Below, piece after piece: positions 10,441 through 33,954 of a DNA stretch of 64,000 nt. Position 1 is the stretch's first letter, and each line of letters opens with the position of its first letter. Under the pieces are notes generated by a model, which saw only the letters and a program-made list of their open reading frames with translations, searched no databases and was not told the DNA's origin. The DNA comes from Clostridia bacterium. Lineage in GTDB: Bacteria > Bacillota > Clostridia > Christensenellales > CAG-917. The stretch lies in the NCBI GenBank assembly GCA_017618055.1, contig JAFZVB010000010.1, positions 31,631 to 95,630 on the forward strand, read 5' to 3'. Position numbers and translations under genes: made by a program.

Positions 10441-13400
10441 TCTTAATACCAACATTTCTTGAGTATTAGCCATATTAGAAACACCATCGCCTAAACTTGG
10501 AATTATGTATCTTGTTTGAGTTGCTGTGCTTGTTGCTGCTCTATAACTTGTATAACCACCCCAAGTGTAGATTTGTGTTCCATTCAAGCTTGAATTTGGA
10601 TCGCCAATTACAACCTTTTGTGCATTGACATATAATTCAATAGCTTGTACACCTGGATGCATTGTATAACTTGAGCTTAAGTTATATGCAGATGGGTCTG
10701 GATCCATATCAATATAGATATGTGCAGATGGATTTGCAACGCTTGTACTCATACTTGCGAATGGTAATGGTAAGATTGCACCAACTAATCTACAGAAGTT
10801 ACCAAGTGTACCACCTGCAACTGCGCCTGCAAGAGCAATCAATGTACTGCTTACGTTAGCAAGGTTGTAAACAACTGTACGTAAGAGTGCAATTGGTATT
10901 GACTTGACAATTGGTTGTAAGAAGTTTACTTTAGCATCTGTTGATGTTAAGCCATCGATGTGTTCGAACATCTTTGCAAGTCCTCCAGATACACCATATG
11001 TACCTAAGACGTTGCTATCAATTTGTTCTTCACCACTGCTTCCATCAGATGTCCATCCCCATGCGCTATAGTTTACAAAGTAAGCATCATCGCTTCCGTT
11101 CCAGTTAGAGCTTGTATCAATACCTTTGCTTTCTTCACCCTCTTTACCTTGTAATAATGAGAGTACTGTTGTGTATAAGAAGATTAACAATTCGTTAAAT
11201 GCCTTCTTACCGAATTCAATATGTAATGATACATACTTCATGTCTGTTGCTGCACTTCCATTAATTGTTCCCATACCAGAGTAATATGGATGGTAGTTAT
11301 TTGAAGTACAGAAGTCTATTTCTAATCCAGCAATTAATCCTTCAAGGTCTGCAGCATAACTATAGTTACCATTCTTGTATTTATCATTAGCTGATGCTGT
11401 TGTATCCTTGACTGGGTCAGTTGTTGAACTATTTGGATATGTATATGTTGCTTCATCTGCTCCCATTACGTTAGCAAATTCGAACATTGGTTTACCGCTA
11501 CCTAAGTCAATCTTCTTTAAGAAGTTTGCAAGGAGGTCAGCGATTGTTGTTTGTAAGTTGAATCCACCTAATACTAAGTCGTTGTTGAAGAAGTAGAGGT
11601 TTGCTGTCATTGCATCACCAGATGCTGCTGGATGTAATGCACTAATACTGAACTTCAACTTATATGTTGCTGGTTCATCATCAATTGAACTCTTTGTCTT
11701 GATACCATTCAATGTTACAGATGTGTATCTGTTATCTCTCTTTGCTTTCCATGTGAACCATGAAAGTGTTGTTAAGTTGATTGTATCAACCTTTCTATCA
11801 ATGTGAATTGTTAATCCAACATTGAGTGAGTCGATAACATTTTGTAACAATGCACCAATACCTGCTGTCTTAGAATATGTAATACCAGCAGAACCATATT
11901 GACATGCAGCAATCTTAGCATCGAGGTCAAGTTTTCTCTCACTAAATGATAAGTCGAAGTCGCCAAGTCTGATACCAAGCATTGTTCCTACTGAGTCAAG
12001 AACAGCTGTAATAGCGAGTTCTGTTACACCAACATCTAATGAGTATCTGCTTTCCATTTCGATGTATTGTAATGGCATCTTGCTTAAGTCTAAGTCAAGA
12101 TCCAATAAACCTAATGCAAAGTCGATAACACTCTTTTCAAGCTTGAGTGAGAATCCACCGTGTTCAACACCGAGTTCTAAGTATAATGAACTTGAAGCTG
12201 CTGCTGAGACGGCCTCAGATGCCTCTGTTTCACTTGCTGTGGATGCGCTTGTATAATTTGGTTGTTTTGCTCCAAGTATTCCTGTTAAGCCGTGGAATGC
12301 GATAGAGCCTAATCCTAAACCTTCAAGGTTGAGGTAGATACAATCTGAGAATATTGTTCCATTCTTAGATAATGTATAGATATTACCAGTCTTTGTTAAT
12401 CTTGAAGAACCAAGATAGTATATTTCCATGAAGGTCTTGTTAATAGGAGCACCTTCAATGAGTTGTAGATAGATATCACTATAAAGAATACCGGAGATAC
12501 CATACTTGACAATTGCTGGGATGTTAACGTCTGCCATAATGTTGATAACAACGTTAATTGTCTTTTGTGGTAAGATTAATGAAATCTTATCGCTTGTAAT
12601 ACCACTAAGGATTCCACCAGCAAGATCTGATTCACCAAGTAATTCTGCAAGGAAGTCTGCTATCCAATAAGAGAATGTCTTATCATAGTTTGCTTGTCCC
12701 TTTACGATACCTTCTGATGAGAGGTTCAATTCACCTGTTACACTTAAGCTTAATGTTTCGAGCTTAATCTCTCCACTACCAACATCATATACACTTTGGA
12801 AATTGCTTTCATAGATTGTTCCTGTGTAGTTGTTTTGATAATGTGCTTCTCCAGCTAGAACTTGTTCATATGTGCCACCAATTAATGACTTATATAAATC
12901 TTCTTCTTTGTCATAGTAGTATGCACCAGCGTCATCAAGTTCATATGTTGAACCATCTAGCTTATATCTATCACCTTTATACATTGGAATTTCAATGTAA
13001 TTGTCTTGTTGGAATCTAAAGTATGTGTAATCTGCTGCACTTTCGTACTTAACAGCTGTCATGTAAATCTTGCTGCCTGTGCTGCTATACTCATAGTTGT
13101 TTCCAACCTTTGCAAAGTTGATATCTGAGTCAGCTATGAATGCTGGTCTATTTGCAGCACCTGTGTAATCTTTATAGACCATTCCACCATTTGCACTATA
13201 CTCTGCTGCTTGAGCATCTGTTAATGCAATATATGATGCTTTCTCATATCTGAAGTATTGCTTGTCACTTCCGGAATTGAAGATAGCTGTTGAACTTGTG
13301 TAGGAAGATGTTGTTAAGACCTTACTAATGTTGAATTCACAAGGTTGTTTCTCTCTACTCCATGTAACTGATTTTGCTTCAAGTGCGAGATAGAAGCTAT

Positions 13401-16400
13401 CTGATACTTTAGCATAGATATTGGTATAGAGTTGCTTATCAGGATTCTCTGAATCGAATGCGATTAACAATGCACCAATGTCTGGCAAGTAATCTGAATC
13501 TGCCTTACCTTGAGCTTCTCTAATTCTGTTAATGATTGCATTAACTGCTGCAGAATTGAGTTGGATGAAGAATTGTCTTGGGAATGTTGTCATGAGTAAG
13601 TATGCAGCTGTTCCAAATACTGGAGATACATCTTCTACATTGTCCATGACGTGTGCAGCTGTTGTAGCTTCACTACTGCTATCACCATCTTCTTCATATT
13701 GTGACATATCATGTCCAAGATATGTACCAAGCTTTGTTCCACCAAGTTCAATTGTATCTAAAAGTTTAGCGAGACCGAGATTATCAATTGAGATTAATCC
13801 AGCATCACCAAATAATCCGTGTGCATCAACATAAATGTTGTCGTTGAATAAGTATACACACAATACTGGATTTGGCATGAACTCGCCTGTGTATGGTTTC
13901 TTGTATTGTCTGAGTTCTATTGTTGCTTGTAAGTTCTTGAAGTTTGCAATGTCAAGGAATACATTCAATGATAAACGATATGTTGGACCATCATCGTTAC
14001 CGATATCGCCCTTGAATCTTGTGTATAATTCAGCACCAGAGAATGCTTCTTCTAAATCTTCATTGCTCATTAAGTTTGCAACAAGGTTAAGAATTTCACT
14101 TAAGTCTACAACGTTATCATTTCCTGTGATACCAGGATCACTATTACCGAATAATGAGATATCAAATTCGATATTGAGGTTGAGTGAGAGTTTAGTGAGA
14201 TCTTTATATACTTCATAGTGAATTCCATCTTTGTCTATTTCTGTATCAATGCTGAAGTCTTTGTTGATTCTTGCATAGATGTTAGATGCCTTTAATTCAA
14301 TATTGTAGTAACCAAGATATAAGTATGTACCTTGATTGTCGATCTTTCTAATCATCTCATAACTATCTAAGAAATAGTATGTTGTGCTTGCTGCAGTCTT
14401 ATCAAATGCTGTCTCAACAAATGTTGTTCCATCTGTTGTTGTGAATGTAGCCTTCAAGAGTACTAATCTTTGTTCATTAGTTAATTCGACCTTATTGAGA
14501 CCAGAGTCAATGTAATATGTCTTTGTTGGATCAAATGCACCAGTTTCAGCTGTGTATGTATTTCCAGACTTTGTATACAATGTTGCTTCAAGAATTGCTC
14601 TTTCTGCATTTGTTATTGCTACATAACGTGGAACCATTGTATATGTGTAGTTGCCAGTTTCAACATAATATGTTGCACTTGTATCTACTGCGCCGGTGTA
14701 TTCTGTGTATACGTCTCCAGACTTTGTATATAATGTCTTTTCGAGTAATAACTTGTCAGCATATCTGAGTTCGATATAATCTCCACCAACATACTTATAA
14801 TATGTTAATCCGTTATTTGCATTATATTCTCTTTCAACATAACTTGAATTTTCTTTTACATATACTTTTGCTCTGATTGCTTTTTCTTCTGCTGTAAGTG
14901 CTACATATGATTGCAATGCCCATCTGTCAAGCTTATCTACATACTTAACAAGTGAATACTCGCCATCACTAAGCATTACATAGTTATTTAATCCAGAAGT
15001 AGACTTAGCAACATAATATTGACCACTCTTGTCATCGAATGCATACTTGACATCGCTTAATGATGTGTATGTTGAATCATTGCTGTATGAGAGGATACCA
15101 GATTCAATTCCGATAACTGCATAGAGTGCGATATGTCCATCATCGTTGAAGTCTAATGTAATACCAGATGTGTCTTTTCCGTTTGTTACTCTTAATGTTG
15201 GTAACTTGGACTTCTCTTCATCTGTTAATCTTGAAGAAATCATTTCAACGATTGAACCAAGTAATGTTTCCTTGAATCCAATTGAGAGCATATCATTTGT
15301 AATCATTATTCTACCGATGAGTGCATCAAGTAATGAGTAGATTGTTTCACCAATACTAATTGTTCCAAGTAATCCCATATCTACATCACCAGCATCTGTG
15401 TTGAGTGATAATGCTGCACTCTTTGCAACAGAATCACGTGCTGCTGAAGATTCGGATGAAGAACCATTAATGAGCTTGCTTAAGTTCAATCCTTCGTACT
15501 TGACCTTATCGAACAAGTCACCTAATGCATTGAATTGTCTTGACAAATCAGATACATCAAGATAGATGTTCAATAATACATCCTTATCAGCATTTTCTGT
15601 TAAGTTAGCAAGTAAAATAATTTCTGTTGCTTCCCAGTCTGTTAATTCTTCTGGGTTATATGTTGCAAGATATGTGGACTTCAATCCAATCTTTCCATAG
15701 ATTGTTGTTCCAACTAACATTGAAAGAATATCGTTATTTCCATCTGTAGCTGTTAAACCTTTGATTAATCTTGCAAGGTCTAAGTATGCCTTTAATTCGA
15801 TAGAAATATCAAAGACTGTATCGAAGCTGAATCCTGCTTTTGTTAATGATGTTGCGATGAAATTAAAGTCCTTACCAATGAATGTGCTCATTTGCTCTGT
15901 GAAGCTAATGATGTCAGCGAATGTTAATTGGAAATCAACATTGAGACCAAGCTCGAATGAGTTGAGATCACCAAGTAATGCACCCAAATCAAGATTGTCA
16001 AGGCTTAATCCATCTGCGAATAAGTCACCGATGTTGAGTCCCATAATCTTGACATAATCCATAGTTGCAAGACCTGCTTCATCTTTCTTATAAATTTCAC
16101 CGTCAAATGGTATGCCACCGAAGTTCCATCCATCTGTTGTGCTGTATGATAATTCTTGTTCTACACCATCTACTACACCGTAGACTTTTGTTACTCTGTA
16201 AAGAGCACCTGTGTATACGAACTTGACATCGCCAGCATATGCATATTTCTTTACATTGCCATAAGCATCTAATTCTTCGTTGCCTTGGCTATCATATCTT
16301 ACATATTGCCATTGTTGTAATGTCTTATCATATTTTACATTGAATGGTTCTACTCCGACCAATTCGCCCCATGCAACTGTTCTAGCATATACTTCTCCTC

Positions 16401-25400: not shown

Positions 25401-28400
25401 CTTCACTTCTGCTATAACGTACTAATGAAGCAACTCTTTCTTGGCCTAAGTACTTGACATAATCCTTAACTGAAATGTACTCGCCTTCTCTGATGAATAC
25501 ATAGCCACCTTCATCGTTTTGTACATATCTATAAACTGGCGTATAAGTTGCCATTGTTTGTGGTAATGTATCTAACTTTTTAGCCTTGAGATATAAGCTC
25601 TTTAATACATGCATTTGTGTTGCATATAATACATATTCACCTGTTGAATCTTGTTCATATGTATAACCAATTATGATGTCTCCATCTTTTACTTCTGTTC
25701 TTGCATAACGTAATGTATCGGAGATGTCTGCCTTTACTCCATTTGCGAAGTAAATAGCATATTCATCAATTTGTAAGAAACGTCTATTGCTTGCGTATTC
25801 TTCTTCGCCAACTACTAGAACATGGCTACCAACTAAGCCACTAACTTGTCTGAAGCTGTCTACAACTTGGTCATAACGTGTTGCTACATCTACTCTCTTC
25901 TCTGCATCAACATATTGGCTTTCATATGATGAAACTGTTACATATGTTCCAACTTTATCAATTAAGCCAAATGTTCCGAATAAGTTTTCGAGATAGTCTG
26001 TAATTTCAACAGCAGCATTGATTTGTTCTTGAGATAACATCTCTTCTGCTTCTTTTCCTATTCTAATTGTTGCACCAATTCCTGTAGCCATATCAAAATA
26101 CATACCATTGGATAATGATGCTTCAAGTTCTAATGCTAATCCCTTGAATGGGTTAATTCCTTGTGAATTTACAAGGTTTGGATTATTAGCAAATCTAGAA
26201 TCATGGAAGAAGAGATAAATGCCACTATTTTGTTCATCTAATTCATATCCTTCAACAACGAATGGTTTGTTGAATAACATTTCGAGTAAGTTTGCAATGA
26301 TATTGCTCTTAAACTTAACTTTAACGTCATTTAATGTGTTGTATGTTTTGTTGATGAATGGAATGTTTTGTGTTCCAGTCTCGAAGATAATTGCTTCTAC
26401 AACACCGTTAAGAATCTTTGCAACCTTTTCGAGTGTTGACTCACCTTCATCTGCAGATGCTGTTGCTTCTCCACTATTGAGTATAGTAGATGCATCTACA
26501 TCAAACATTGATAAGATATCAAATAAGCTTGCTTTAATTGTTGGACCAGAAATTCCACTTAAATCAATTACGAGGTCACCATTTACAAGATAGATACCAA
26601 ATGTAACTTTGCTTTCGCTCTTATTCAATGAAATTTCGATACCTAAGTTAATTGCACTTAATAATGTTTGAATATCGAAGTTGAGTTCATCTAAATCACC
26701 TGTTGTTAAGAGTGATGTAATACCTAATACACCTAAGTCAATATTACCCTTGATTGAGAGTACGATATCGAGATCTAATGGCGCATTATATAATGCTTGG
26801 AATGATAAACTATTTGCAAGAGATCTTACCATTGGTCCAAGTAATTCACCAACTGATTCATTGTTTTCTAATGATACTAGTAAGTTTTGTACAAATGGTA
26901 ATTCAATTAATGCATCAAGGAGTTCATCCATATTTAATGATTGTTGTACATATAAACCTTCATTATCTTGAACGAATCTTCCATCTGATAATCTCTTTGT
27001 ATATCTTTGTGAAGGACTATAGTTCTTAGCCTTCTCACCTTCATATTTGAATGTTGTAGAAATGAACATATCTACGAACAAGTCAAGATCGAAGCTTAAG
27101 ATAGGATTTGTATTAAATACATCGAATCTATCAAAGTCATGTTCTTCGTCCAAATCTTGTCCGAATGTACGTGCATCTAAACGCTTGTAAACAGCTTCTG
27201 CCTTTACAGTTGTATCTTCAATTCTGAAGTAATGTTCACTAGCTTTATAGCTACCTGTTGCTGGATAGAAATATCCATCGAAGTATGTATAGAAATCACC
27301 TACAATTTGATCACCAACAATGTATTCTGATGTATCAAGCATTACAGGTTCTTTTACCCATCTTCCGTAACCAGTATCTTTTTCTTCATCTGTTAATTCA
27401 ACAAGAAGAATTCCAGCATAAACTGATTTTTCAATAGATGTCTTAATAGCAGCTATATCACTTTCTTGTGGAGCAAATGAAATCTTTGGAGATACAACAT
27501 TTAAGCCAAGTTTGAAGAAGTCTCTGTATACTTCTGTTGTATAAACTGTATTTCCATCAATATCTGTTTCAGAAATAGAGTTCTTTGGATCAAGAATTGA
27601 AGAATCAATATTTAATGCAAGAGCTGTATTTCTAATATCTAAGTCTAAGTCAATAGATAACTTGAGACCTAATTGTTGTAATAATTCTACAGCATTTCCT
27701 GCATCGCCTGTGCCGATAAGTGCACTTACGATTGAGAAAATAACTGCTTCTGTAATCTTTAATTGAATATCTCTTTCTGCAAGGTTAAGAATAATACCTG
27801 CATCTACTGTTCCTGGATCTGCTGCTGTTGTAGCTTCTCCATCAGTGCCGAAGTTAATTCCTAATCCACCTAATACTTTATTCAAGACATTTGTTAATAA
27901 TACTGCGAAGTTTGTTCCTTCAACAACAAAGTCATAATCAGAAAGGATTCCCATGTCAACATACAAGTTGCCATTTACGAGATAGAGTCCGAATAACATC
28001 TTTCTCTTTTCAAGGTCTCTTAATTCTAATAAGATTTGAGCCTTTGTTGAGTCTTTTGTATTGAGGTTTGCATCAAGTCTTAATTCCCAATTTACTCCAA
28101 TGTCACTTTCTACAGTAATACCAAACTTCAATGCTAATTCAGCAAGGAATACTGAGATGTAATCACCGATTGCATATGGGTTATCTTCACTAGCTTCTGC
28201 AAGTGAGAAATCGATTGCAATAGCTGCACTAATTGTTAAGTCTTCAAAGTTGAGAACGTTGTTGTATTCAGCTTTGTTGATAACAGTTTCTGTAACAGAT
28301 GCTGTATCGCTGAATGAGATTCTAATCTTTGAAAGTTCTAATCCGAGTGCAACTGGTGTAATGCCAAGACTGAATTCAAGACGATATTGATTGCCCCATT

Positions 28401-31400
28401 GTAATGCAAGGAAGCTACTGTCTGGGTCTATTGGGAAGAATTCCTTTAACCACTTAGATCTTGAACCATCTTCTAAGTCAATGTAATCATACATTGCATA
28501 TACATACTTATATGCTCCAGCGTTATCCTTTACAAAGTTAACTGCATAAAGAGTTCCTGTGAATGTCTTTCTGTCCTCATCTGAAATTGCAGCAAAGGAA
28601 CCATCACTTTGTTGCTTAAAGTATGTGCCATTGAATAATGTATAATTATCACCAATCTTGAAATATGCTTGGCCAGAGAATGTATAAATATTATCTATGA
28701 GATTGTAATTTTCTCCAGATTTTGTATAGAAATTGTTATCAAGTGAGATATAATCTGCTCTATATCTTGTTCCCTTGAATACATCTGACTTCTCTGCATC
28801 TGTTAATGCAATAGCAAATCCTTGTTCGCTTGTAGATGTATAATCTTCACCATCTGGGCTTTCAACAAACTTATAGTAATTTCCAACTAATTTTTGTGGT
28901 TCATTGTTGTAATAGAAGTATCTATCTCCAGCATATGTGTATAATTCTTCTGCAGGGATTAATACATAGTTTTCTCCATCCTTCTTATAGAGGTTGTTTG
29001 CTAATGAAACATATAATGGAGCATATCTCTTTTCTGGAGGATTTGATAAATCTTTAATCTTATAGAAGTAACCATTTGTATGTTTGAAATATTCACCACT
29101 TGTATCTTCTACAAATGTTACAGCATAACGATCTGCGAATGCGACTGTATTCAATTCACCTTCATCCAATTCAATATATTGGTCATTTCCATCTCCAACA
29201 ATGAGAGATACGATAAATGCAGCGAGGTTCTTTGCAAATGAAATCTTAATTTCATCCATGCTTGCTGTTACAGAGTAAATTGTATTACTGAGTAATGCTG
29301 GAAGATCACTTAAGATTCCACCTTCGCCGGTTAATCCAGCTAATAATCCACCACTTTCTTCTTCTGTTGCTGCTGGTTCAGCTGTTGCTGGATCTTGTGC
29401 TGGTGCTGGAGTTGCTTGAGATTCATCTTCTTTCTTTTCTTCATCGTTAGACTTGTCTAAACCAAGTAATGTTACAAGGTTTACACCATCTAAATAAATC
29501 TTTGTATTTTGAATAATGTTAAGATTTGATTCTAAGAACAATGTGCTGGATGCAACACCACCAACTTCACCTTGATAGATAAGTGAAAGTGTAATTAAGT
29601 TAGTATTATTGCCACCTGCAATATATTCACCCTTGTATAACTCAATTCTTAAATCAGAGTGAGATAATACATAGTTTACATCAAATCCATTTTCCCAATT
29701 GAATCTTGCAAGGAGTGCAATTCTAAATCCAATTGTTGTGCTAATATTGTGGTTTACACCGATTCTAACGAGTAATCCGTGTAAAATAGATTGAACTGTC
29801 TTGGAATCTTGAGATACAACTGCTGAAATCCAATCACCAACTGTCCAATCTTCATAGCCACCATTTGTTCCTTGCGCTGAGAGGTTAATTCCACCTGTCA
29901 ATTCAAGGTAAACTTGGTCAAGAGCTATGTTATTATTTGCATCAAGTAATGTGATTGATTCAAATTTGTCTTCATTTAATAAAACATTATCTGCATCAAC
30001 TTGTTTCAATTCACCAATTTGTAATGCAATCTTATCAATAGAGATATCAAGACCATTCTCATCATCACCATTTTCGTCTACTATACCAAAGTGGATAGAA
30101 GCACCTAATCTAGATAAGAGGTCTGCCATCTTTTTGAATTTTGTTCCTGTGTATGTTGGTTCTGCTATAACATAATCACCATACTTGTTATTTAATGCAT
30201 ATTCACCATTCTTATTTTCAACGAACTTATATGTTCCTGCTGCATCTTCTACATATTCAGGAGCAATTGCGAGTTTTAACCATAATGCAATACCTGGTAA
30301 ATCAAGAGCAAGCTTATCTGCAAGAAGTTGTGTTAAACCATCAACTAATTTAACCATGAATCCAGTTGAAGAGATTTCTGCTTGAATGATGATAGCAAGT
30401 TTTTGTTTATCTGCTGCTGTTAATGCAAGTGTTGAATCAGAAGATGTTGTTCCTTCGGATGCTGGATTAATTCTAATAACATCTTTAGCATACTTGTATG
30501 TTCCATTTTCATCATCTCTTGTGTAAACATCATTGCCTTCTGCATCTTTAGACTTTGTATATCTTGGTCCAGCATATCCGCCTTCTGCTACTGGCTTTAA
30601 TTCATCGCCCTTAAGTTCAATATAAGCATCCTTAAGGATGAGATTCATAATTAACTCAAATAAATCTAATTTAATTGCTACTCTATCAATACCGAAGTTT
30701 GTTGCATCAAGATATAATTCACCACCCATATAGTATAATCCTAATAACAATTTAACTTCTGAGCTTTGAGATACTTTTTCAAGTTCAACTAAAAGTTGAG
30801 AATTATTCTTGTCTGTATAAATGTCTCTTTCACCATTGAGATATGCAAAGAGTGGATAGAAATCTAAGCTTGCTTGGACCTTCATATTATATCTTACATC
30901 AATTGCTTCAAGAATTTGAATTGCAGAGGATGTCAAATCACCAATATCATATCCTGCTTCTGCCATTGCATTTATTAAGAGTTCATTTTGGTTAAGGTCT
31001 ATTGTATCTTCAGCGATTCTAATATGCATACCGCCCTCAAGATCTAACCATACATATGGAGCCACAAAGATATCAATATATTCATCTTTGTCTTCAACGT
31101 GTAATGTATCAGAGTTAATTGCTAAATCAAATCCGCCTATTGTAATATTGAGTTCAAGTTGGTTATTGAGTGTAGCAAATAACATAATTTCTAATTGAGA
31201 TAAGTCTAAGCCGTCTTTGAATGAAATTCTTAATCCGCCATTTCCTTCTGCATCGAAGATAGAAATGGAAATTGTATCTCCAAAGTTTACACCTAATGCT
31301 TCGAGGAGGTTGTTAATTAAGTTTGTAGCAAGACCGATTTCGATATAATCTCTACTAATTGTTACATCGCCCATAATTGCAGCGAGTAATGCAATAATAT

Positions 31401-33954
31401 CGAATCCGCCGTCTCCATCTGCTGCTATAACTGCATCTGATGCTGCAGAACCTTCTACATCGTCTTTATTGAGTAATCCACCAACAAATTGTGAAATATC
31501 AAGGCAAATCTTATTTAACCCAATAGCTGTTGCATCTAAGTAAACAACTTGGTCTTCTAAGTATAATCCTAATACCTTCTTGAGTTCGCCTGTTGAAGGA
31601 TCTGTCTTTGTTGCATCGAATAATTCAATCTTTGCTACAGAATTGAGGATGCTATTTAGACCATCGCTTATATCAAGGTTTGCTTCAATCTTTAATAACA
31701 AGTTAGCATCAAATTTTTCTGCTATGTCGAATAAAATCTTAATTAAATAATCTTCAAGAGAATTTACTTGAATATCTGTTAATGTTCCTGGAGCAATATA
31801 GAACTTAATTTGTGTTTCGAGTTTGAGATAAATTGTCTTTAATGAAATGTTATCAAGAACTTGTGAGATTTCAGATAGTTTTCCGATTGTACCAAGTGAA
31901 ACAAAGTTGTTGTCTCCAATTGTACTAATCTTTCTCTTTGCACTACATGTTGTTGTTCCGAATTTAGCATTTACGCCAATACCAATTGACATACCATCGA
32001 AGACACCCATTGCATCTCCAAGTCTTAAATCGATATTGATTAACTTCTCTTTTGCAACACCATAGTTGTAATATGTGATATCGAAACTTCTTATAGGAAG
32101 TTTTGTTCCGTATAATGGATTGTCTACTTCATTTCCATCATCATCTTTCTTTGTTGCTGGGAAGATTAATTCGCTAATATAGTCAATTGCATCATTAGAA
32201 ATTGCTACCAATAATGAACGAATATTTAGGAGGTTGTCATATGGAGCTTCTTCTGTTTCAATCTTAATGCTCTTAACTATATCAATAATTAAATCAAGAA
32301 CTGAATTTACTGTTCCACTTGCAGCTGTTGCTGAAGAAATTCTACGTGGAATTGTTCCGTCTTCGAGTTTTTGTAATAACTCTTCGTATGTTCTAATTTC
32401 TGCTTGAGATAATGCTTCGCTTACGCTAATACCACTTAATAAGTTCTCGATTAATGTTTTAACATTAATACCACTTAGCAAGTCATCTATAATATTTGAT
32501 AAGTTGAGGTCTGTAATCTTATAACGACCGAATTCACCTATCATATTAGACATGTCTACATAAATAGTTTCTGTAGCACCAACATAGTAGATTGCTAATC
32601 TTTCTTCAGTGCCTCTAGATAGAGCATCTCTAATTTTAATTTCTAATTCTGTCTTGGAATTGTCTGTTAAATTTAAGCTACCTTTAATATCAATTGTTAA
32701 TGCATAGTTTGTAGCTGCTGTATTGAGATTTAATCCCCAAAGTGGAGAATCTGGTGGTAACATATTAACCAAGAGTTTGGATAATAATTTTCCTAAAGCA
32801 TCGTCAATATTTCCAATAGTAATTCTCTTTTCTGAGGTATTAATAGCTGCATTAAGTGTAATATCGAAGTCTAAAACCGAATATTCTCTGGTGACTTCTT
32901 TGAGAGCATCTGGTAGGAGGACATAAGATGCTGCATCTTCACCTTGTTGTAATTCATCGCTGTACACGATGTTAGGATCTACACCCTTGCTTATTTGTAA
33001 AGCACCGACAGAAAGGGCGATGTCTTCTGTGAAATATCCATAAATATCGGCTGTATCGGTCTTCATGGAATCCATTGGAGCGTCTAAGAATAGTTCTAAA
33101 GAACTAAGCTTGTTATCTTTAATCTTTGTATCTAAAACAATCTTAACTTCGCTACCGACTATTGCATCAATACGAGATAAGTCTAAACCAAGAACTTGGA
33201 AGATTAAGTTCTTAATATCATCGTTTAAGACACCTGAGATCAAACCAAGTACCATATCCATTAAGTCTTCTACTTGGAATGGGAACTTGATGTTCTCTTC
33301 ACCATTACCAAGGTCTATAATGTCAATGGTCTCTGGAAGCAACATACTTGTTAACAATCCAGATAATGTTTGACCACTCATTAAGTCAATAAATGTTCCG
33401 AGGTCTAATCCAAGGAGTGTATTATAGAAAAGATCCGCAACACTTGTTCCTGCGAACATGTTGTGAATTCTATCAGCAAAATATGCTAAGTCAATCTTAT
33501 CTGTCTTAACAATTTCGGCTCCTTTCTTAACCCCCGTGAAGTCTGCATAACACCAACCATCAACGTAGTACAACGCAGCAACACGGCTTTGGACTCCATC
33601 TACGGTGATTTTATCCAAGCCCATGTAAATTCTTGAATTAGGCGTGTCCTCCTGATTAATGGATCCAGCAACTTGAAGGACGAACTTGTTTCCATTTCCG
33701 TTCTTCTTGAAATCAAATCCCAATATGGTATTGAAATTTAAGAATCCAGCTGTGGATGTGTTTGTGTTAAGTGCTGCATTTTTGACTTTCTCCCATGCAT
33801 AAGCACTTGAAACTGTATTGACAGCGGTACCTTCTGCTGGTGGTTCCACTTCAATAGTTTGTGGCTCAACTGTCGTCTTCTTGTTACATGCAAACAATGT
33901 ACAGCAACATGCAATCAATAAAATGACGATTAAAAGTAAATAAAGTTTTTTCAT
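2641..33954 (-). CDS. giant surface lipoprotein (about 10,437 aa), family unknown
   Basis: One frame stays open for over 31 kb in AT-rich DNA. GGAGG-aaaa-ATG at 33954. N-terminus MKKLYLLLIVILLIACCCTLFAC|NKK is a signal peptide plus lipobox. TAA stop at 2641-2643. A promoter and an upstream terminator bracket the 5' end. Confidence 0.9.
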   Translation of the reverse strand: MKKLYLLLIVILLIACCCTLFACNKKTTVEPQTIEVEPPAEGTAVNTVSSAYAWEKVKNAALNTNTSTAGFLNFNTILGFDFKKNGNGNKFVLQVAGSINQEDTPNSRIYMGLDKITVDGVQSRVAALYYVDGWCYADFTGVKKGAEIVKTDKIDLAYFADRIHNMFAGTSVADLFYNTLLGLDLGTFIDLMSGQTLSGLLTSMLLPETIDIIDLGNGEENIKFPFQVEDLMDMVLGLISGVLNDDIKNLIFQVLGLDLSRIDAIVGSEVKIVLDTKIKDNKLSSLELFLDAPMDSMKTDTADIYGYFTEDIALSVGALQISKGVDPNIVYSDELQQGEDAASYVLLPDALKEVTREYSVLDFDITLNAAINTSEKRITIGNIDDALGKLLSKLLVNMLPPDSPLWGLNLNTAATNYALTIDIKGSLNLTDNSKTELEIKIRDALSRGTEERLAIYYVGATETIYVDMSNMIGEFGRYKITDLNLSNIIDDLLSGINVKTLIENLLSGISVSEALSQAEIRTYEELLQKLEDGTIPRRISSATAASGTVNSVLDLIIDIVKSIKIETEEAPYDNLLNIRSLLVAISNDAIDYISELIFPATKKDDDGNEVDNPLYGTKLPIRSFDITYYNYGVAKEKLINIDLRLGDAMGVFDGMSIGIGVNAKFGTTTCSAKRKISTIGDNNFVSLGTIGKLSEISQVLDNISLKTIYLKLETQIKFYIAPGTLTDIQVNSLEDYLIKILFDIAEKFDANLLLKIEANLDISDGLNSILNSVAKIELFDATKTDPSTGELKKVLGLYLEDQVVYLDATAIGLNKICLDISQFVGGLLNKDDVEGSAASDAVIAADGDGGFDIIALLAAIMGDVTISRDYIEIGLATNLINNLLEALGVNFGDTISISIFDAEGNGGLRISFKDGLDLSQLEIMLFATLNNQLELNITIGGFDLAINSDTLHVEDKDEYIDIFVAPYVWLDLEGGMHIRIAEDTIDLNQNELLINAMAEAGYDIGDLTSSAIQILEAIDVRYNMKVQASLDFYPLFAYLNGERDIYTDKNNSQLLVELEKVSQSSEVKLLLGLYYMGGELYLDATNFGIDRVAIKLDLFELIMNLILKDAYIELKGDELKPVAEGGYAGPRYTKSKDAEGNDVYTRDDENGTYKYAKDVIRINPASEGTTSSDSTLALTAADKQKLAIIIQAEISSTGFMVKLVDGLTQLLADKLALDLPGIALWLKLAIAPEYVEDAAGTYKFVENKNGEYALNNKYGDYVIAEPTYTGTKFKKMADLLSRLGASIHFGIVDENGDDENGLDISIDKIALQIGELKQVDADNVLLNEDKFESITLLDANNNIALDQVYLELTGGINLSAQGTNGGYEDWTVGDWISAVVSQDSKTVQSILHGLLVRIGVNHNISTTIGFRIALLARFNWENGFDVNYVLSHSDLRIELYKGEYIAGGNNTNLITLSLIYQGEVGGVASSTLFLESNLNIIQNTKIYLDGVNLVTLLGLDKSNDEEKKEDESQATPAPAQDPATAEPAATEEESGGLLAGLTGEGGILSDLPALLSNTIYSVTASMDEIKISFAKNLAAFIVSLIVGDGNDQYIELDEGELNTVAFADRYAVTFVEDTSGEYFKHTNGYFYKIKDLSNPPEKRYAPLYVSLANNLYKKDGENYVLIPAEELYTYAGDRYFYYNNEPQKLVGNYYKFVESPDGEDYTSTSEQGFAIALTDAEKSDVFKGTRYRADYISLDNNFYTKSGENYNLIDNIYTFSGQAYFKIGDNYTLFNGTYFKQQSDGSFAAISDEDRKTFTGTLYAVNFVKDNAGAYKYVYAMYDYIDLEDGSRSKWLKEFFPIDPDSSFLALQWGNQYRLEFSLGITPVALGLELSKIRISFSDTASVTETVINKAEYNNVLNFEDLTISAAIAIDFSLAEASEDNPYAIGDYISVFLAELALKFGITVESDIGVNWELRLDANLNTKDSTKAQILLELRDLEKRKMLFGLYLVNGNLYVDMGILSDYDFVVEGTNFAVLLTNVLNKVLGGLGINFGTDGEATTAADPGTVDAGIILNLAERDIQLKITEAVIFSIVSALIGTGDAGNAVELLQQLGLKLSIDLDLDIRNTALALNIDSSILDPKNSISETDIDGNTVYTTEVYRDFFKLGLNVVSPKISFAPQESDIAAIKTSIEKSVYAGILLVELTDEEKDTGYGRWVKEPVMLDTSEYIVGDQIVGDFYTYFDGYFYPATGSYKASEHYFRIEDTTVKAEAVYKRLDARTFGQDLDEEHDFDRFDVFNTNPILSFDLDLFVDMFISTTFKYEGEKAKNYSPSQRYTKRLSDGRFVQDNEGLYVQQSLNMDELLDALIELPFVQNLLVSLENNESVGELLGPMVRSLANSLSFQALYNAPLDLDIVLSIKGNIDLGVLGITSLLTTGDLDELNFDIQTLLSAINLGIEISLNKSESKVTFGIYLVNGDLVIDLSGISGPTIKASLFDILSMFDVDASTILNSGEATASADEGESTLEKVAKILNGVVEAIIFETGTQNIPFINKTYNTLNDVKVKFKSNIIANLLEMLFNKPFVVEGYELDEQNSGIYLFFHDSRFANNPNLVNSQGINPFKGLALELEASLSNGMYFDMATGIGATIRIGKEAEEMLSQEQINAAVEITDYLENLFGTFGLIDKVGTYVTVSSYESQYVDAEKRVDVATRYDQVVDSFRQVSGLVGSHVLVVGEEEYASNRRFLQIDEYAIYFANGVKADISDTLRYARTEVKDGDIIIGYTYEQDSTGEYVLYATQMHVLKSLYLKAKKLDTLPQTMATYTPVYRYVQNDEGGYVFIREGEYISVKDYVKYLGQERVASLVRYSRSEVYVQSNVGKFVEFRNAYLAVVAYSTYTGIAVSDIPKEMRYELDHATQVQKDDGALVYVDVLYVDITKYCLLNAITEDAVDRRIRYNFDGYRYSRDDNGDYVRAEGNEYLGIDSTGIVVDFNLYTTAVADSARYRYIKTVVTQNNQGDYIKLVKGTILSLDDYSYYTGTAIADIPLSIRIDADGNPDQNGNRVKISADMIVTLAQYCFKNGISDANIDTMVPISIRSAVKEVYDQWVDENGDGYKDWTDSDEDGKDDKTGIATTTLLTLADYPYTFIPTEYSSQNIYLSINARLFFETVDKKSVNIGGLLTNWLGDAIIELTSGNIFKDGIGARIAINLDLASLNLNDGLNGILQSDFSNIEVGLELLETNENGEIIVDEYGNTKQKGGLYLYHGTLYLDGMGLFPDANQYAYVPNFMDLIQNVLDYDFSFQEILDGISKEIGLATSSAESSTSEDARTAILELLTTDTSVQLVLTKSLIAVIVAALLPEVGSVAEVFDQFSLTLGIDFGSSNYKMFSDWKYKSAQGETYDPDLKYYTLVYNTLQVGTDYNVGDIISVVAYTLDGSNYVPAYGTYEDGKTYYTLTKTALTAGIDYQAGNTIETGVYQLYSTENALDYVFDDIVGSKQRYTVVSATSQTYTDTASFTAKAGYVLEEDAMGYQVYTMLTQAKIHNIITNKGSVEVYRPTFVQNDNGLYVYIEDDFGQYYACILPLTERYTQHAGIDYELTNGFDEGDQPRIPADIDSEYKDEVKVASQQGQFARAYVEDRWLYIDTERYPLMYSTTGIAPFEPKVEKFVAENSGIAGFQYTDGLKMVVNTTTKESYTYVYYYNNYYVVSGLYNKLTGYTIDSKGTSYSKLHVIKNLYELGITLAFDINGVHAGLTIGGLKIDFGAGHSILPARIIKQQTEGSYTIKYKYNEIYGANAFDSVAKKDRYTLTKYGYVQDDYGNYAHHDYEYCPLVIFYDSTIELAFSVELELSIDEGKIDIGPIFEDLLGDLDGVSIEIPSTTKGYSSAHFRLDASLKLDLYDLSNSELVLELYSIGITGYETLWLGVYYIADVIYINAAVLGLPKLSITSFGVMKYLNTILKDIIGEFYNENVLPDAEDSSEAGVASDAVTANTANGEIDVSVLFDRRTLSIQVANTFIRWALGLVVIDNTTGLTIADLISEHLIANVGVDMRLEDGFNLDLDVALGFKGDRYTIIREDEADVTDKFYRFGRDDLGKYVLEDGVLRVLKPSEKVDSITRYSLEENTEQVQGKNKVYFDTYADAKKTGYYVAYLSEAKSEANMEDYDMNLDLYVGIKNLNIAFNSVHEFLLTAEDIREYSEVGELEHISISEVIDITTLFKADSNIDLAEILTHFFPEIDAESIIAEITAESDAHGDIHRIIEAEINMDIKIAALMNYFRQVFTTGTANFNSDFSVSDLIAIIKAVLNKDDNLNVYQILDDVLSYINTSLVIRTRCGYDEGTGEYTDTHNWISIYFVGGEFEELVENNFGVYGYKSDKTTFVDKEHRYSHYFKAADNNGPYYYNTATKKYDLITENFSEDVDTYYYDSTYCYLNENGEYYRHNGGMYIDLSYFNVPSLYLQSTSIEHLFESLSLNDTINNLIGGSEASTPEEKISATSQSDAEASVTFPLLNDEISGYIRAFLYGLKITSQLTSIIVQPDYINEILQLVMGEDDAFRFSYLDSIQYQVDEQGNRLHDSSLTIYADRSAYNFITSKYAFASEINESNARFIATYNQEEGQYLIAPVDYIITIAEFEAEFGTAYTVDPTTCEISSTEIDRRFENAPIRCNSVGDPQVDGDHVSFMRYEYQEKKNLSAAQLADYTNNNDGVYFDIEMNDAYVYVGNGFTYFGAAESDASTIGIFNDYTDYEYFYGYDGINYFKLNKKANGYIYIAETDAPYYGIDVYVPSGKYEKLTKVTKTERRYKYTDVETYYTPVKYTGGEWAIRSDGSYVLLASLSLVEQGEVQVNERYKMMPMYLNNSVVSIGHDHWPAFRYRTLVNNEYDDTINYGRLEVDGQLRYMEMIRFNEDVKYVTYEANRYGESYVLYIPVMMNNLLIRPTGYTPVETTPAEIISKAKVGTDYRFYGYDVKTLEFIPLTWDSTNNYWYLSNDSEKARYAGSLYMLSIHDEYNPILTIPASTVKNDSFLTMQLYLWDHSITIDVNIPKIDAVDFTYLTKTDYEAIYGVGSAPKAALFTSEPQYIYTPIDPVSFVYDNTEEYFYINQGIYYSLNDTSIYTYSAGAYSLAGTADFTHGDAWDVKYYVGIPEDDPTIYKLIEKKKVYTRAISKYVYTRSEDGEYVRVKVDSSVTYSKLAYSKITSAEYDAYVLAAAHYVYDEKTYSYVVSTDPGATLTYKDILYVYDSETHHYISITNYEVEHSGYDFSSTTIYKARGIEYVSTDDVYYISLSLDGSMYMNSANVYKSMAEFAQSKKSSMYNSKTIWKKDSYASAESNGKYVKVIDNYYGTNDGYYMLVNDYKALVDKPTTDGKLYNIYSNTDDYIRVINGNWYCADNNPKDNGHSIVDMLYTEGLIVDTDKIYVFQQGGYAEFGTVLAKKDVLDNNTQYYLLYSSGASSTLNKVIGGIVGDLDTALEFTKELSGEIEFKITLSYGGTLLLGTNEETGEFQFGLDVFNLELAIDTWRRTNHDDDNTLTHVFGLYYDRDDTVGKSGLYLDLSYFLNEEAKVYVDLSEYPLEDFINDKLYYDKVETYYEATAAAEESEAVTSAGSTLSGGNMTAAYFNIYTSAFGISITSGFLKVLLNNLITGFEQYAGYIPNLEIFIKGELDPYKLKVGLTLDDEEGNALVEAGVRLNGITGDYNTGTVLDFGSLSKYDSIDMTSKDYIFYYGNFVRVDKAGTVSNYDDSVQYYGKDGERKGYVKIASDDYGVAGSWYYTEDGYEAVNGARYNNKVYTRSSNIRVNEDLTKAMKLIETNKYDSYDFKAGTDENSEVIDFYGLVNGEFVQVQYDVFNLVSDNSGLWYYTFDNEAACKLAETRFRGEVYARTVAWGELVGVEPFNVKYDKTLQQWQYVRYDSQGNEELDAYGNVKKYAYAGDVKFVYTGALYRVTKVYGVVDGVEQELSYSTTDGWNFGGIPFDGEIYKKDEAGLATMDYVKIMGLNIGDLFADGLSLDNLDLGALLGDLNSFELGLNVDFQLTFADIISFTEQMSTFIGKDFNFIATSLTKAGFSFDTVFDISIELKAYLDLARLIKGLTATDGNNDILSMLVGTTIYGKIGLKSTYLATYNPEELTDWEATEIILLANLTENADKDVLLNIYLDVSDLSRQFNALGDLFDKVKYEGLNLSKLINGSSSESSAARDSVAKSAALSLNTDAGDVDMGLLGTISIGETIYSLLDALIGRIMITNDMLSIGFKETLLGSIVEMISSRLTDEEKSKLPTLRVTNGKDTSGITLDFNDDGHIALYAVIGIESGILSYSNDSTYTSLSDVKYAFDDKSGQYYVAKSTSGLNNYVMLSDGEYSLVKYVDKLDRWALQSYVALTAEEKAIRAKVYVKENSSYVEREYNANNGLTYYKYVGGDYIELRYADKLLLEKTLYTKSGDVYTEYTGAVDTSATYYVETGNYTYTMVPRYVAITNAERAILEATLYTKSGNTYTAETGAFDPTKTYYIDSGLNKVELTNEQRLVLLKATFTTTDGTTFVETAFDKTAASTTYYFLDSYEMIRKIDNQGTYLYLGYYNIELKASNIYARINKDFSIDTEIDKDGIHYEVYKDLTKLSLNLNIEFDISLFGNSDPGITGNDNVVDLSEILNLVANLMSNEDLEEAFSGAELYTRFKGDIGNDDGPTYRLSLNVFLDIANFKNLQATIELRQYKKPYTGEFMPNPVLCVYLFNDNIYVDAHGLFGDAGLISIDNLGLAKLLDTIELGGTKLGTYLGHDMSQYEEDGDSSSEATTAAHVMDNVEDVSPVFGTAAYLLMTTFPRQFFIQLNSAAVNAIINRIREAQGKADSDYLPDIGALLIAFDSENPDKQLYTNIYAKVSDSFYLALEAKSVTWSREKQPCEFNISKVLTTSSYTSSTAIFNSGSDKQYFRYEKASYIALTDAQAAEYSANGGMVYKDYTGAANRPAFIADSDINFAKVGNNYEYSSTGSKIYMTAVKYESAADYTYFRFQQDNYIEIPMYKGDRYKLDGSTYELDDAGAYYYDKEEDLYKSLIGGTYEQVLAGEAHYQNNYTGTIYESNFQSVYDVGSGEIKLETLSLSVTGELNLSSEGIVKGQANYDKTFSYWIADFLAELLGESDLAGGILSGITSDKISLILPQKTINVVINIMADVNIPAIVKYGISGILYSDIYLQLIEGAPINKTFMEIYYLGSSRLTKTGNIYTLSKNGTIFSDCIYLNLEGLGLGSIAFHGLTGILGAKQPNYTSASTASETEASEAVSAAASSSLYLELGVEHGGFSLKLEKSVIDFALGLLDLDLDLSKMPLQYIEMESRYSLDVGVTELAITAVLDSVGTMLGIRLGDFDLSFSERKLDLDAKIAACQYGSAGITYSKTAGIGALLQNVIDSLNVGLTIHIDRKVDTINLTTLSWFTWKAKRDNRYTSVTLNGIKTKSSIDDEPATYKLKFSISALHPAASGDAMTANLYFFNNDLVLGGFNLQTTIADLLANFLKKIDLGSGKPMFEFANVMGADEATYTYPNSSTTDPVKDTTASANDKYKNGNYSYAADLEGLIAGLEIDFCTSNNYHPYYSGMGTINGSAATDMKYVSLHIEFGKKAFNELLIFLYTTVLSLLQGKEGEESKGIDTSSNWNGSDDAYFVNYSAWGWTSDGSSGEEQIDSNVLGTYGVSGGLAKMFEHIDGLTSTDAKVNFLQPIVKSIPIALLRTVVYNLANVSSTLIALAGAVAGGTLGNFCRLVGAILPLPFASMSTSVANPSAHIYIDMDPDPSAYNLSSSYTMHPGVQAIELYVNAQKVVIGDPNSSLNGTQIYTWGGYTSYRAATSTATQTRYIIPSLGDGVSNMANTQEMLVLRIDPYSTESTSITSPLLGFDEADSASLIGTEPSSIHITDPANRSGYIVVGSSSQDFVLNATAFQDNTLFPAKANVTFNNGEPSLDTGATVVVWDAGGVDFTPYEGEMGEKFAGYVYGYALNICVAAIPVYVTNDYGFKSIKAYKYDGSTWKTEAITRDMQNNVEDLPDMVKISFQTGGTYTFATVAQDMTGAGLSARYDTENDGKTHVTGVAYKSRVKLDDNGNVILTTGLSTNTTTSTWYYQHLDDENKLYYTKGSLTSATKYYPEDITDPLYAVFDSTKNTAFNKLKNSRNYPAGTISWNYGNYSYDFSNANVKVGFSYSWGFTSQSQTITIPMVNYKINDTGVTKYSTTTAGDTYVKTFANFNSLTLASVIPDSNNNGRVDKNEFISYIKSFKYVSGKYASNKSFSGLSVEWDTSLLEDAIDKLVDDNNTPSNTSDDKIKFYEGLRVTIPMYIGGKEFKLNQLKTATGSDYGFTGNADKDTVCKYPYAQAGYVSQVVYVDIVVSSSKVASVSSEFTFNPYSSDDMDATAGQEVLGNIDRETSFGDQVMVVMEGSKKATAISYASGTARLEGPYYVRRGIATLSVTDSDMIVPGQLDTPTMAEYIARYVSYEGLESNDYNVYVKLTIGNSSTGGDQVFFKQVTFAKLTPTVVTREVSDTFNPYWYKGKDANDVPYNTLNVSFKEIAGTITMTPDWTQVKYYSDAGRTKEITGISKGGIIYATVPAEVVVGTGNDAKHLGRKYTKDEDGNVVYVPQTIVVKLKVATKNVKAITFYKDDIYGANLESAASGTWNQIVNVDSYTSKAYAPQAVIGEDGTVYSIDTYIYSTHPEYYFRAPDQTAEDYKTILENSWSCIRGISGFTGATYRKTVLKNCTVVCVEEYNGNKSLAIISGWDYTSYLNNANEDSIRCNISFTIGNQTFNTTIITPSYEVNNVELLNEDGSHFDRFVPQDDDSLVYNACTVWAIPSKVRATVGGNYEFADVSNKTTEQILADYLPYLSTADQIKYLRSLNGLYVDYETWARRVYYKVSSAYYVTYDKYLEVKGNIAIDDANKFKKGTRVDATEEDVGVKTIYILENSHYVPLNIADIDEAKTYVNDHAGSVFVFDAGDTYYNIVEENTDGLYIRVAVANGYVEFDDYCEFEDIDMATYTGSNVYVYVNGSYTETSTSVFVKKYAYEPIDDVKVRIFGVNGQIGDGVLPTRADFFTDADGETKYILMYVDVYAEAKLITQTKRYKVIFEHLDDKVIKIEFNYDENSTDDDIATEYGVADFGAMPTKARVTIDHQDMIKERTVTWTLFDTYTAEELANRVVVREGILGTGLPFADDAKLYIGGVEADPSTYEIQGTEILFRTTIIPADKVELVSGDITTTWNDVDNKSFTLKAANFVNGLPTTAKYYTTINGVQTTKDVPIEWLNVVDLKPVTYTVSGFANRIVYAKAVCDHISILNIVDLTIEPISVVGVESIMNEIKFVYDPYGIITNSDLDAAEEKVLFNDGDTVGVQIKYNNGEEDVTQTVNVVINILDDTLLKASRDASKCKSVFGKTIELPIRYNFADGTKVDSTISVYIEDRTIKRVENASQRSMVVDPYYYKSFGTLFDDQGNIVDGGYGYPEKVSMTMKNRLADGNDALVHYVTLPSDTIIADALKKGGYINSSYQLLVGYKVSDEVYAYQYITMPISVVNRTIASEFFVMPSDYTLIKVTESSSKLTLTYEDYATGNLMRFVYSKGTNKPETIYFDNAFDFDLDLIPDQMNISFSNGEGRNYYIRKTTNGDIASATDAKKVQRADLTIEILNKNPAEADDAIVIDSYKIEVIRSANTVTKYNSNIVFNDDFSYVYEFDPYVTEYADTVYNTEHYNSHGYKNFAETGTYWVDGQYISAATYNDKYANVRAITTPITSMAQYNAWVSGGKVAEGDYVYKVLTYNNGDTIYYRYNSDTKNYYIAPQADDAYVFMYTTQTTVNLEWNTKDVKYTYEGGVHNAQVTIIGQNGVSKETMTAPLSFIDRTINNDTDNKGGIKVGSSYVTELTFDPWTLSDGKYADYLNARNDDYFAGIRYYLDEDGQYAKATLYYDNVRDKYYKVNGNAYAETTEKTGAINIADAKYKFVNYVVGYNQDHTTVTEERYVEMTDYEIYGTYKYLPNSGKVYLNNEVMDYTKIAWNTLSVTIDYAGGVYKAYVYVNGFGEYNFGGNKVGTQRSIITINVKNRTATALVAADQAAIIAIAPSFLKRGTTAGSSITSINPYDYIAPDMPTTLTVTTAEGTQKFYSSDDTNYEANKNYSLVWSYSKFRPSYMGGVVYINALLTGPDGSTQIFRLPFAVEKMQATNVTSVYTGSPRTTGNYPYTSDVNASGVASTTYTIDPYAPLSQSLPQNYKVTFAKSKISSITIGDDGYPTNDYGYTSDGTTSITFGYAKVSMPATFALTLNTSTGAISDGLSSAAERVATIYLGSQERITVNFTTTTTKVTNQNTATTTTGSGKLATYRLPYKQTSGTVMGTIVWIGTATPKDASGNNKLSTAQIVTFSAGTGGIALPDKGRKVVYKLVGVVGALVDKNGTLLDTETLTTSKSIGGITFPAGTILPRYYGVGTTYTITVNLDGSLTVA
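10741..10902 (-). other. hydrophobic Gly/Ala/Leu-rich segment in the junction region of the giant protein
   Basis: Translation is SIPIALLRTVVYNLANVSSTLIALAGAVAGGTLGNFCRLVGAILPLPFASMSTS. Confidence 0.5.
11560..32610 (-). repeat. about 14 highly diverged copies of an unassigned module (hallmark G-[LIV]-Y-[LYF]-x2-4-G-x-[LIV]-Y-[LVI]-D), protein-level repeat
   Basis: Anchor motifs include 32554-32592 (IYYVGATETIYVD), 31534-31569 (GLYLEDQVVYLD), 30706-30741 (GLYYMGGELYLD) and 27955-27990 (GLYLVNGNLYVD). Further anchors are 26563-26598 (GIYLVNGDLVID), 24205-24240 (GLYLYHGTLYLD), 22213-22248 (GVYYIADVIYIN), 17368-17421 (GLYYDRDDTVGKSGLYLD) and 13825-13860 (CVYLFNDNIYVD), plus weaker copies. Confidence 0.6.
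29350..29457 (-). other. acidic / Pro-Ala-rich low-complexity linker inside the giant protein
   Basis: Translation is DKSNDEEKKEDESQATPAPAQDPATAEPAATEEESGG. It is the only long low-complexity tract I saw in the protein. Confidence 0.7.
33886..33954 (-). other. lipoprotein signal peptide (SPase II type) of the giant protein; lipidated Cys is codon 23
   Basis: Two Lys residues, a 13-residue hydrophobic core, then L-F-A-C (Cys codon at 33888-33886). Confidence 0.75.

Follow-up and report, generated by a model that had tools for sequence, protein, structure and literature searches.

In the 64,000-nucleotide stretch of metagenome-derived DNA analysed here (the window; contig JAFZVB010000010.1 of assembly GCA_017618055.1), whose host is an uncultured gut bacterium of the Clostridia, probably of the Christensenellales, a single giant gene encodes a protein of more than 10,000 residues. 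About the first 7,300-7,400 residues of this protein, its N-terminal 70%, are filled, as a preliminary description of the sequence had proposed, by 14 copies of a module that matches no known family, and the array is preceded by a predicted lipoprotein signal peptide. The array is ancestral, and even between proteins that otherwise hardly align, its order and, in giant relatives, its number (14 ± 1) are kept. On balance, we think it probable, if not strongly so, that the protein belongs to a new family of rods of the envelope or surface that are lipid-anchored and have a fixed architecture.

The repeat is not apparent to simple comparison. A self-BLASTP of the giant protein returned nothing off-diagonal at 1e-3, and no direct or tandem repeats were found at the DNA level beyond short chance matches. 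Hence, the copies are very diverged at both levels, as had been noted beforehand, and since they are too diverged for BLAST, profiles were required to analyse them. An iterated hidden Markov model (HMM) seeded on six anchors recovered 11 copies in the window, and 11 copies passed a leave-one-out HMM test with scores between 13.8 and 40.7 bits; among 1000 shuffled sequences of matched composition, the highest score was 10.2 bits. A family HMM trained on 846 module instances in other proteins, which contains no window sequence at all and to which we refer as the homologue-only HMM, detected 14 copies with 13.9-150.6 bits (null maximum 9.6), all of them within amino acids (aa) 89-7305. In addition, a motif-free scan was carried out with 240-aa profile windows cut from an alignment of eight orthologues; off-diagonal matches of at least 12 bits were confined to the module sites, with the exception of one weak C-terminal pair. 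Collectively, these three approaches demonstrate a periodicity that extends beyond the short motif by which the copies had originally been noticed. Pairwise identity between the copies amounts to 11.5-25.2% (mean 16.3%), and the spacing from anchor to anchor ranges from 276 to 1183 aa.

All 14 copies lie on the reverse strand; they are listed here from the N-terminus, with bit scores from the homologue-only HMM and, where available, the leave-one-out (LOO) score. Copy 1 (33178-33732, aa 89-273, anchor ALYYVDGWCYAD) reaches 33.0 bits (LOO 19.3) and is followed by copy 2 (32155-33018, aa 327-614, anchor IYYVGATETIYVD; 74.5 bits, LOO 28.2), copy 3 (31252-31947, aa 684-915, anchor GLYLEDQVVYLD; 83.3 bits, LOO 28.9) and copy 4 (30301-31233, aa 922-1232, anchor GLYYMGGELYLD; 79.7 bits, LOO 32.6). 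Copy 5 (29161-30060, aa 1313-1612) has a degenerate anchor and scores 42.1 bits; with the window-only HMM it attains 3.8 bits, which is not significant. Next come copy 6 (27649-28380, aa 1873-2116, anchor GLYLVNGNLYVD; 118.1 bits, LOO 40.7), copy 7 (26266-27132, aa 2289-2577, anchor GIYLVNGDLVID; 87.5 bits, LOO 31.4), copy 8 (23881-24771, aa 3076-3372, anchor GLYLYHGTLYLD; 100.4 bits, LOO 28.3) and copy 9 (21880-22710, aa 3763-4039, anchor GVYYIADVIYIN; 150.6 bits), the latter being the copy that we modelled with AlphaFold2. In copy 10 (20320-21624, aa 4125-4559; 76.0 bits), the anchor is split into ISIYFVGG ... GGMYIDLSY by a Tyr-rich insertion of about 80 aa in the anchor hairpin. Copy 11 (17005-17748, aa 5417-5664, anchor GLYYDRDDTVGKSGLYLD) scores 71.0 bits (LOO 15.7). 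Copy 12 (15235-15990, aa 6003-6254, anchor LNIYLDVSD) is the weakest one, with 13.9 bits and an hhalign probability of 80%, and among the copies of the orthologues it matches copy 12 best. Copy 13 (13450-14433, aa 6522-6849, anchor CVYLFNDNIYVD) scores 94.4 bits (LOO 29.3), and copy 14 (12082-12873, aa 7042-7305, anchor IYYLGSS...DCIYLNLEG) 38.8 bits; in the orthologue alignment, the latter displays a strong module signature, YYLGSSRL...FSDAIYIDASGLGLG.

The preliminary description had arrived at about 14 copies as well, albeit by a slightly different set of sites. Its nine clear motif instances were all recovered where it had placed them, six by a regular expression and three via the alignments and the anchor table. 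Four of the five sites that it had listed as weak (29470-29505, 20645-20700, 15545-15580 and 12310-12345) fall into copies 5, 10, 12 and 14, respectively. The fifth (11560-11603), which would have been a 15th copy at aa 7465, was rejected; it has no match to the homologue-only HMM and an hhalign probability of 0.1%. Thirteen of the listed sites are consequently real, and copy 1, which lies beyond the end of the region that had been delimited, had been overlooked.

The array is encoded by a single open reading frame (ORF) on the reverse strand (2641-33996), which comprises 10,451 codons when counted from its GTG start. Judged from the sequence, the true start is likely to be the ATG at 33954, codon 15 of this ORF, which is directly preceded by GGAGG; the gene would then extend from 2641 to 33954 and contain 10,437 codons plus the stop. 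The predicted lipoprotein signal peptide MKKLYLLLIVILLIACCCTLFAC (33886-33954, reverse strand) ends with the lipobox LFAC, whose Cys is aa 37, and is followed by NKK. This N-terminus conforms to the lipoprotein pattern [LVI][ASTVIF][GAS]C, and the signal peptide is the sole transmembrane (TM)-like segment of the entire protein. At the C-terminus, neither an LPXTG motif with a hydrophobic tail nor another sorting signal was found, and a Pfam scan of the protein for SLH and CW_binding domains was without a match; the hallmarks of sortase-anchored and of SLH- or cell-wall-binding-type wall proteins are thus lacking. The mature protein is strongly acidic (1,452 Asp and Glu versus 820 Lys and Arg residues), rich in Tyr (7.5%) and Thr, and almost devoid of Cys.

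Relatives of the giant protein are numerous and without names. When 1.84 billion representatives were searched exhaustively with a profile, 139 proteins emerged at E<=1e-3, 20 of them at E<=1e-30, and none of the proteins is named; no fewer than 139 clusters (50% identity) thus make up the family, and its best matches are 6,500-7,900 aa in length with 9-15 matched stretches each. A word-index protein search with aa 3000-4100 found no homologue, and with alignments A2 and A4 as queries it returned only four short fragments each; this index evidently misses the giant members. Over its entire length, the giant protein aligns collinearly with the relatives P0001-P0011 (11-13 high-scoring segment pairs, 22-38% identity), and it exceeds these orthologues of 7,286-7,924 aa in length through lineage-specific insertions. 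Of particular weight is the positional orthology of the modules. Copy k best matches copy k in 14 of 14 cases against P0005 and in 13 of 14 against P0003, at an overall identity of 25-33%. The array is therefore older than the divergence of the family, which bears out the ancient origin that had been assigned to the copies.

An N-terminal lipobox is present in all 18 full-length representatives (at least 5,500 aa). Thirteen of them possess 14 modules, three possess 13, and two possess 15. Compact and very distant members are among them; in these, the modules directly adjoin one another, at a period of 230-330 aa, and precede a module-free stretch of 3,000-3,700 residues. The relative P0025 is a complete lipoprotein of 4,300 aa in which the modules stand back to back without any spacer. 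Both its gene and that of P0050 adjoin genes for regulators (SigI/RsgI or two-component) and are each followed by a separate gene for a TM-anchored MBG_2/MBG_3 protein, and in two distant relatives faint matches to the Ig-like Big_4 domain were detected in the C-terminal parts. At loci L011 and L013, which represent two distant relatives, we observed a very large TM-anchored MBG_2/MBG_3 protein directly after the module-array lipoprotein, and SigI/RsgI-type or two-component regulators before it. At L012, the locus of one distant relative, the array runs past a stop codon and a 62-nucleotide gap (11796-11859) into the next called gene, which begins with two more modules; a frameshift, a sequencing error or a truly split gene could account for this.

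A scan of the genomes of GTDB species located eight loci, all in metagenome-assembled genomes (MAGs), which are mostly labelled as uncultured Clostridia/Clostridiales, Christensenella sp. or Christensenellales. Two of the eight bins are labelled Bacteroides and Butyrivibrio, yet they contain the same conserved neighbours. As the G+C content of these loci (L001-L008) varies from 36% to 54% at constant gene architecture, the family spans lineages of very different base composition. The closest locus, L001, contains an intact orthologue with 78% identity over aa 3818-10451 (6,630 codons). The ratio of nonsynonymous to synonymous substitution rates (dN/dS) in this comparison is about 0.21 over 6,605 codons, and lies between 0.10 and 0.31 in each block of 600 codons. 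The giant gene is thus real and constrained, and its downstream synteny at seven of the eight loci (see below) speaks for this as well. Searches with tblastn against plasmid and phage collections found no relative; there is therefore no sign of an origin from a mobile element.

The conserved core of the module comprises about 230-300 aa, and not the 280-340 aa that had initially been proposed; the family consensus has 297 columns. It contains long runs in which hydrophobic and polar residues alternate strictly (hphphp, up to about 16 residues), one face carrying Leu/Ile/Val and the opposite one Asp/Ser/Thr/Lys. Further elements of the consensus are a G-x-I-D-L-G-D-L-L turn-helix, the near-invariant Y-x6-Y-x-D hairpin that constitutes the anchor, two additional amphipathic "LLxxLLG" helices, and an acidic, Ser/Ala-rich loop of low complexity. 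This loop, 25-45 aa in length, is conserved in each module of each family member. We modelled copy 9 (aa 3737-4048) with AlphaFold2 on the basis of a module alignment of 30 rows. Residues 95-224 of the model form a confident core, in which the predicted local distance difference test (pLDDT) score, averaged over blocks of 10 residues, is 73-95. This core consists of five to six β-strands of 10-15 residues and a helix of 17 residues, and the model shows disorder in the acidic loop. In copies 11, 14 and 10, between 6 and about 80 aa are inserted at the tip of the anchor hairpin; since insertions of this size are tolerated, the tip is probably exposed.

Among the 338 invariant columns, almost all are occupied by G, Y, L, P, D, F or W; His accounts for two of them and Cys for one, the latter being the Cys of the lipobox. 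With such a set of residues, a structural role appears more likely than catalysis, and enzymatic activity is therefore not expected. A function as an enzyme or toxin was considered and rejected, as there are no conserved residues of the catalytic type.

The view that the module is unassigned withstood a broad set of searches. Searches of Pfam (E<=0.01), NCBIfam and PHROGs with the whole protein gave no match, and Pfam searches with 30 module sequences revealed no recurrent family at E<=1, the matches being sub-threshold singletons. Among six distant relatives, Pfam recognised nothing except Big_4 in two. Sequence and profile searches of the PDB with the protein and with its modules were empty, and a Foldseek search of BFVD with the copy 9 model gave chance-level matches only. 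Literature searches found no description of the module family. Both the module and its family seem to be novel. From gut Clostridia, proteins of more than 10,000 aa have been reported that are built from RCC1, Listeria-Bacteroides, YG, dockerin and leucine-rich repeats (West-Roberts et al., bioRxiv 10.1101/2023.11.21.568195). The giant protein resembles these in its size, in its affiliation with Clostridia of the mammalian gut and in its recovery from metagenomes, but according to Pfam and NCBIfam it contains none of these repeat types.

These findings lend themselves to a model in which a diacylglycerol-modified Cys at the predicted lipobox would hold the N-terminus at the cytoplasmic membrane, on its outer face, and the 14 modules, arranged in series, would form one elongated stalk or rod with a defined length of tens of nanometres. 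Such a rod could pass through the wall and beyond, and might display its fast-evolving, insertion-rich loops and its C-terminal region at the surface, where it would serve in binding or in the organisation of the cell envelope. The fixed number and order of the modules, their positional orthology and the absence of homogenisation point to a single defined architecture and therefore not to an expandable beads-on-a-string adhesin. A surface context is likewise suggested by the MBG-domain neighbours and the Big_4 domains of distant relatives.

Several observations weigh against a rod of this kind. The number of modules is not universal, as the smaller distant relatives P0025 and P0050 have 12 and at least 7 of them, respectively, and by BLAST the C-terminal 3,100 aa are not detected in distant subfamilies. 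The structural predictions are not firm either: the model of copy 9 is only partly confident as a whole (mean pLDDT 61, predicted template modelling score 0.46), and a 921-aa model that covers copies 9 and 10 is unreliable with respect to tertiary structure (pLDDT 45). Finally, the hydrophobic face of the predicted strands could equally fit a lipid-binding groove or globular domains covered by helices.

Among the alternatives, a conventional giant adhesin has to be considered first, although we regard it as unlikely. The modules would then be autonomous ligand-binding units, directed against host glycans or partner microbes and connected by flexible acidic linkers, and their number would be accidental. 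The protein indeed shares with giant adhesins such as Ebh of S. aureus and those of the SiiE/LapA/Bap type its very large size, its acidic composition of the extracellular type, its construction from repeats and, probably, its reach beyond the wall. It also evolves fast, as it has diverged to a greater extent than the products of neighbouring genes (25-38% versus 58-68% identity), and contains both lineage-specific insertions and Tyr-rich insertions in hairpins. MBG- or Big_4-containing partners or tails among the relatives fit an adhesin as well, as does a window neighbourhood rich in glycoside hydrolases (GH20, GH127-like, PIG-L). Giant adhesins are, however, typically composed of known Pfam domains (Ig-like/Big, FIVAR-GA, cadherin-like) that occur as near-identical tandem copies in variable number, and they are anchored via LPXTG, a type 1 secretion system (T1SS) or a C-terminal TM segment. 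None of this applies to the giant protein: no known adhesin or other binding domain was detected in it, its unassigned modules are 11.5-25% identical without repeats at the DNA level, they keep their positions and a count of 14 ± 1 across deep divergence, and its predicted anchor is an N-terminal lipid.

A second alternative is provided by the AsmA-like or repeating β-groove (RBG) proteins (bacterial TamB, YhdP and AsmA; eukaryotic VPS13 and ATG2), whose fold is a continuous β-taco with units of five strands and a loop. The strands of successive modules would, by analogy, form a continuous hydrophobic groove that is crossed by the acidic loops, a bridge whose existence we consider rather improbable. 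It is similarly doubtful that such a conduit carries lipids or other hydrophobic molecules from the cytoplasmic membrane to a target farther out, for instance the wall surface or a partner cell. The ancient repeats of TamB, YhdP and VPS13 are fixed in order and number, and this also holds for the giant protein. Both are long and built from ancient, barely recognisable β-rich repeats with long amphipathic strands and disordered loops, and the giant protein would share with them a defined length and an N-terminus at a membrane. In keeping with a groove are the hphphp runs of up to about 16 residues with one face of Leu/Ile/Val, the strands of 10-15 residues in the AlphaFold2 core, the 25-45-aa loop of low complexity that each module contains, and the modules that abut without spacer in a compact relative.

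Homology to RBG proteins, by contrast, finds no support. Neither the protein nor its modules match the AsmA-like/RBG models of Pfam (AsmA, AsmA_2, TamB/DUF490, DUF748 and related ones). In hhalign, a module profile of 400 sequences aligned to E. coli TamB with a probability of 0.04% (E 0.91), a comparison of low sensitivity in which TamB was represented by a single sequence, whereas the weakest window copy, which served as a positive control, reached 80%; hmmsearch with the module profile gave E. coli TamB 0.0 bits. Foldseek matched the copy 9 model to nothing in the PDB below E=0.08, and no RBG protein was among the top 50. The giant protein further differs in its predicted anchor, which is a lipobox and not a TM helix, in being 5-8 times longer, and in having helices in each module, three amphipathic ones that could cover the hydrophobic face. 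Nor does it have the N-terminal TM anchor in a diderm inner membrane from which RBG proteins span to the outer membrane, since it carries a lipobox and its related loci lie in MAGs mostly labelled Clostridia/Christensenellales. As a rule, members of these groups are monoderm, and the lineage of the carriers is thus expected to be without an outer membrane to bridge to. The proposal that the array is an independently evolved groove, or another continuous β-superstructure of fixed length, is to be viewed with considerable reserve; lipid-anchored in a monoderm gut bacterium, it would act as a conduit for hydrophobic cargo or as a molecular ruler that fixes how far the surface lies from the membrane.

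A chimeric assembly, a pseudogene or a chance long ORF with fortuitous recurrence of a motif, which the metagenome-type source and the lack of an exact look-up match for the protein might bring to mind, is effectively refuted and has a negligible probability, given the collinear orthologues of 7,300-7,900 aa in many independent assemblies, the intact gene in a related MAG with 78% aa identity over 6,630 codons, a dN/dS of about 0.2, and module scores far above those of shuffled controls; this is in agreement with the earlier statement that the array is neither a recent amplification nor an assembly artefact.

The module-free C-terminal region (2644-12081, reverse strand; aa 7306-10451) contains no module match and is conserved among close orthologues, as judged by BLAST collinearity. 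Its best-conserved block (aa 7690-8200; 9397-10929) features the motifs IYIDLDP, WDA and AGYVYGYA, and Pfam and PDB profile searches with this block (alignment A7) were empty. A lineage-specific insertion (24577-25809, reverse strand; about aa 2730-3140) is absent from orthologues (occupancy 0.07-0.15) and is made up of approximately three tandem units of about 135 aa (self-matches 2795~2928 and 2866~3004). A second one (28870-29115; about aa 1627-1790) has a tandem period of about 82 aa (1627~1709). The small tandem repeats in both insertions are unrelated to the 14-module family. The Tyr-rich insert of copy 10 (20674-20962; about aa 4345-4441), with its RYSHYF...GxYxY...RYSYD-like sequence, recurs in the orthologues and may represent a small element for binding via aromatic residues. 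A promoter-like sequence, TTGACT-18-TAAAAT with a TG extension (34013-34042, reverse strand), was found upstream of the giant gene by a consensus scan only. It comes after a terminator-like hairpin (34107-34128), likewise a consensus match only, at the end of the gene that lies upstream of the giant gene.

Directly downstream are genes for a Mem_trans carrier of the AEC type (1499-2575, reverse strand) and an SPFH/Band-7 protein that ends in a triple zinc ribbon (292-1422, reverse strand). Homologues of one or both are found 3' of the giant gene at seven of the eight loci and are, with 58-68% identity, far more conserved than the giant protein with its 25-38%. This neighbourhood could reflect plain synteny or a functional link. 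The genes that surround the giant gene are those of an ordinary chromosome of an anaerobic Firmicute, among them those for GH20, a GH127-like protein, a PIG-L deacetylase, an anaerobic ribonucleotide reductase, a SpoIIE-type phosphatase, a MatE transporter and several tRNAs. Four of the tRNA genes (Met, Met, Glu, Val) are clustered at 45213-45546, and a listed ORF with a TTG start (45498-46235) overlaps that for tRNA-Val; at least the start of this ORF is therefore probably spurious. At 46247-49427, a STAS domain fused to an APH-type kinase-like domain adjoins a SpoIIE phosphatase fused to an anti-sigma-type kinase domain (HATPase_c_2); partner-switching modules are not usually arranged in this way. 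The region 51799-55852 encodes NrdD with a C-terminal glutaredoxin-like domain and, downstream, a thioredoxin-reductase-like protein and a radical-SAM activase; as the latter two ORFs overlap by about 130 nucleotides, a start codon has probably been mis-set. A stand-alone Condensation-domain protein (41722-43017) is encoded next to two ORFs without Pfam match (43019-43915 and 43884-44714).

The giant protein exceeds 10,000 residues and shows no recognisable domain anywhere, yet it belongs to a coherent family of gut Clostridia. The combination of a predicted lipid anchor with about 14 ancient modules in fixed number and order, the unusual hallmark of this family, points to one large machine or to a ruler-like structure and away from an expandable adhesin. 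Bacteria of the Christensenellales-like group have been linked to host phenotypes and are known to aggregate with other microbes. If the module were formally defined, for instance by a new entry in Pfam, each Christensenellales-like genome would gain an annotation for tens of kilobases of its "dark" coding sequence. At the same time, the module offers a tractable unit of 230-300 aa with which the existence of bridge-like or rod-like envelope proteins in monoderm bacteria can be tested; should the groove prove true, the family would represent a Gram-positive analogue of the RBG proteins without detectable homology to them.

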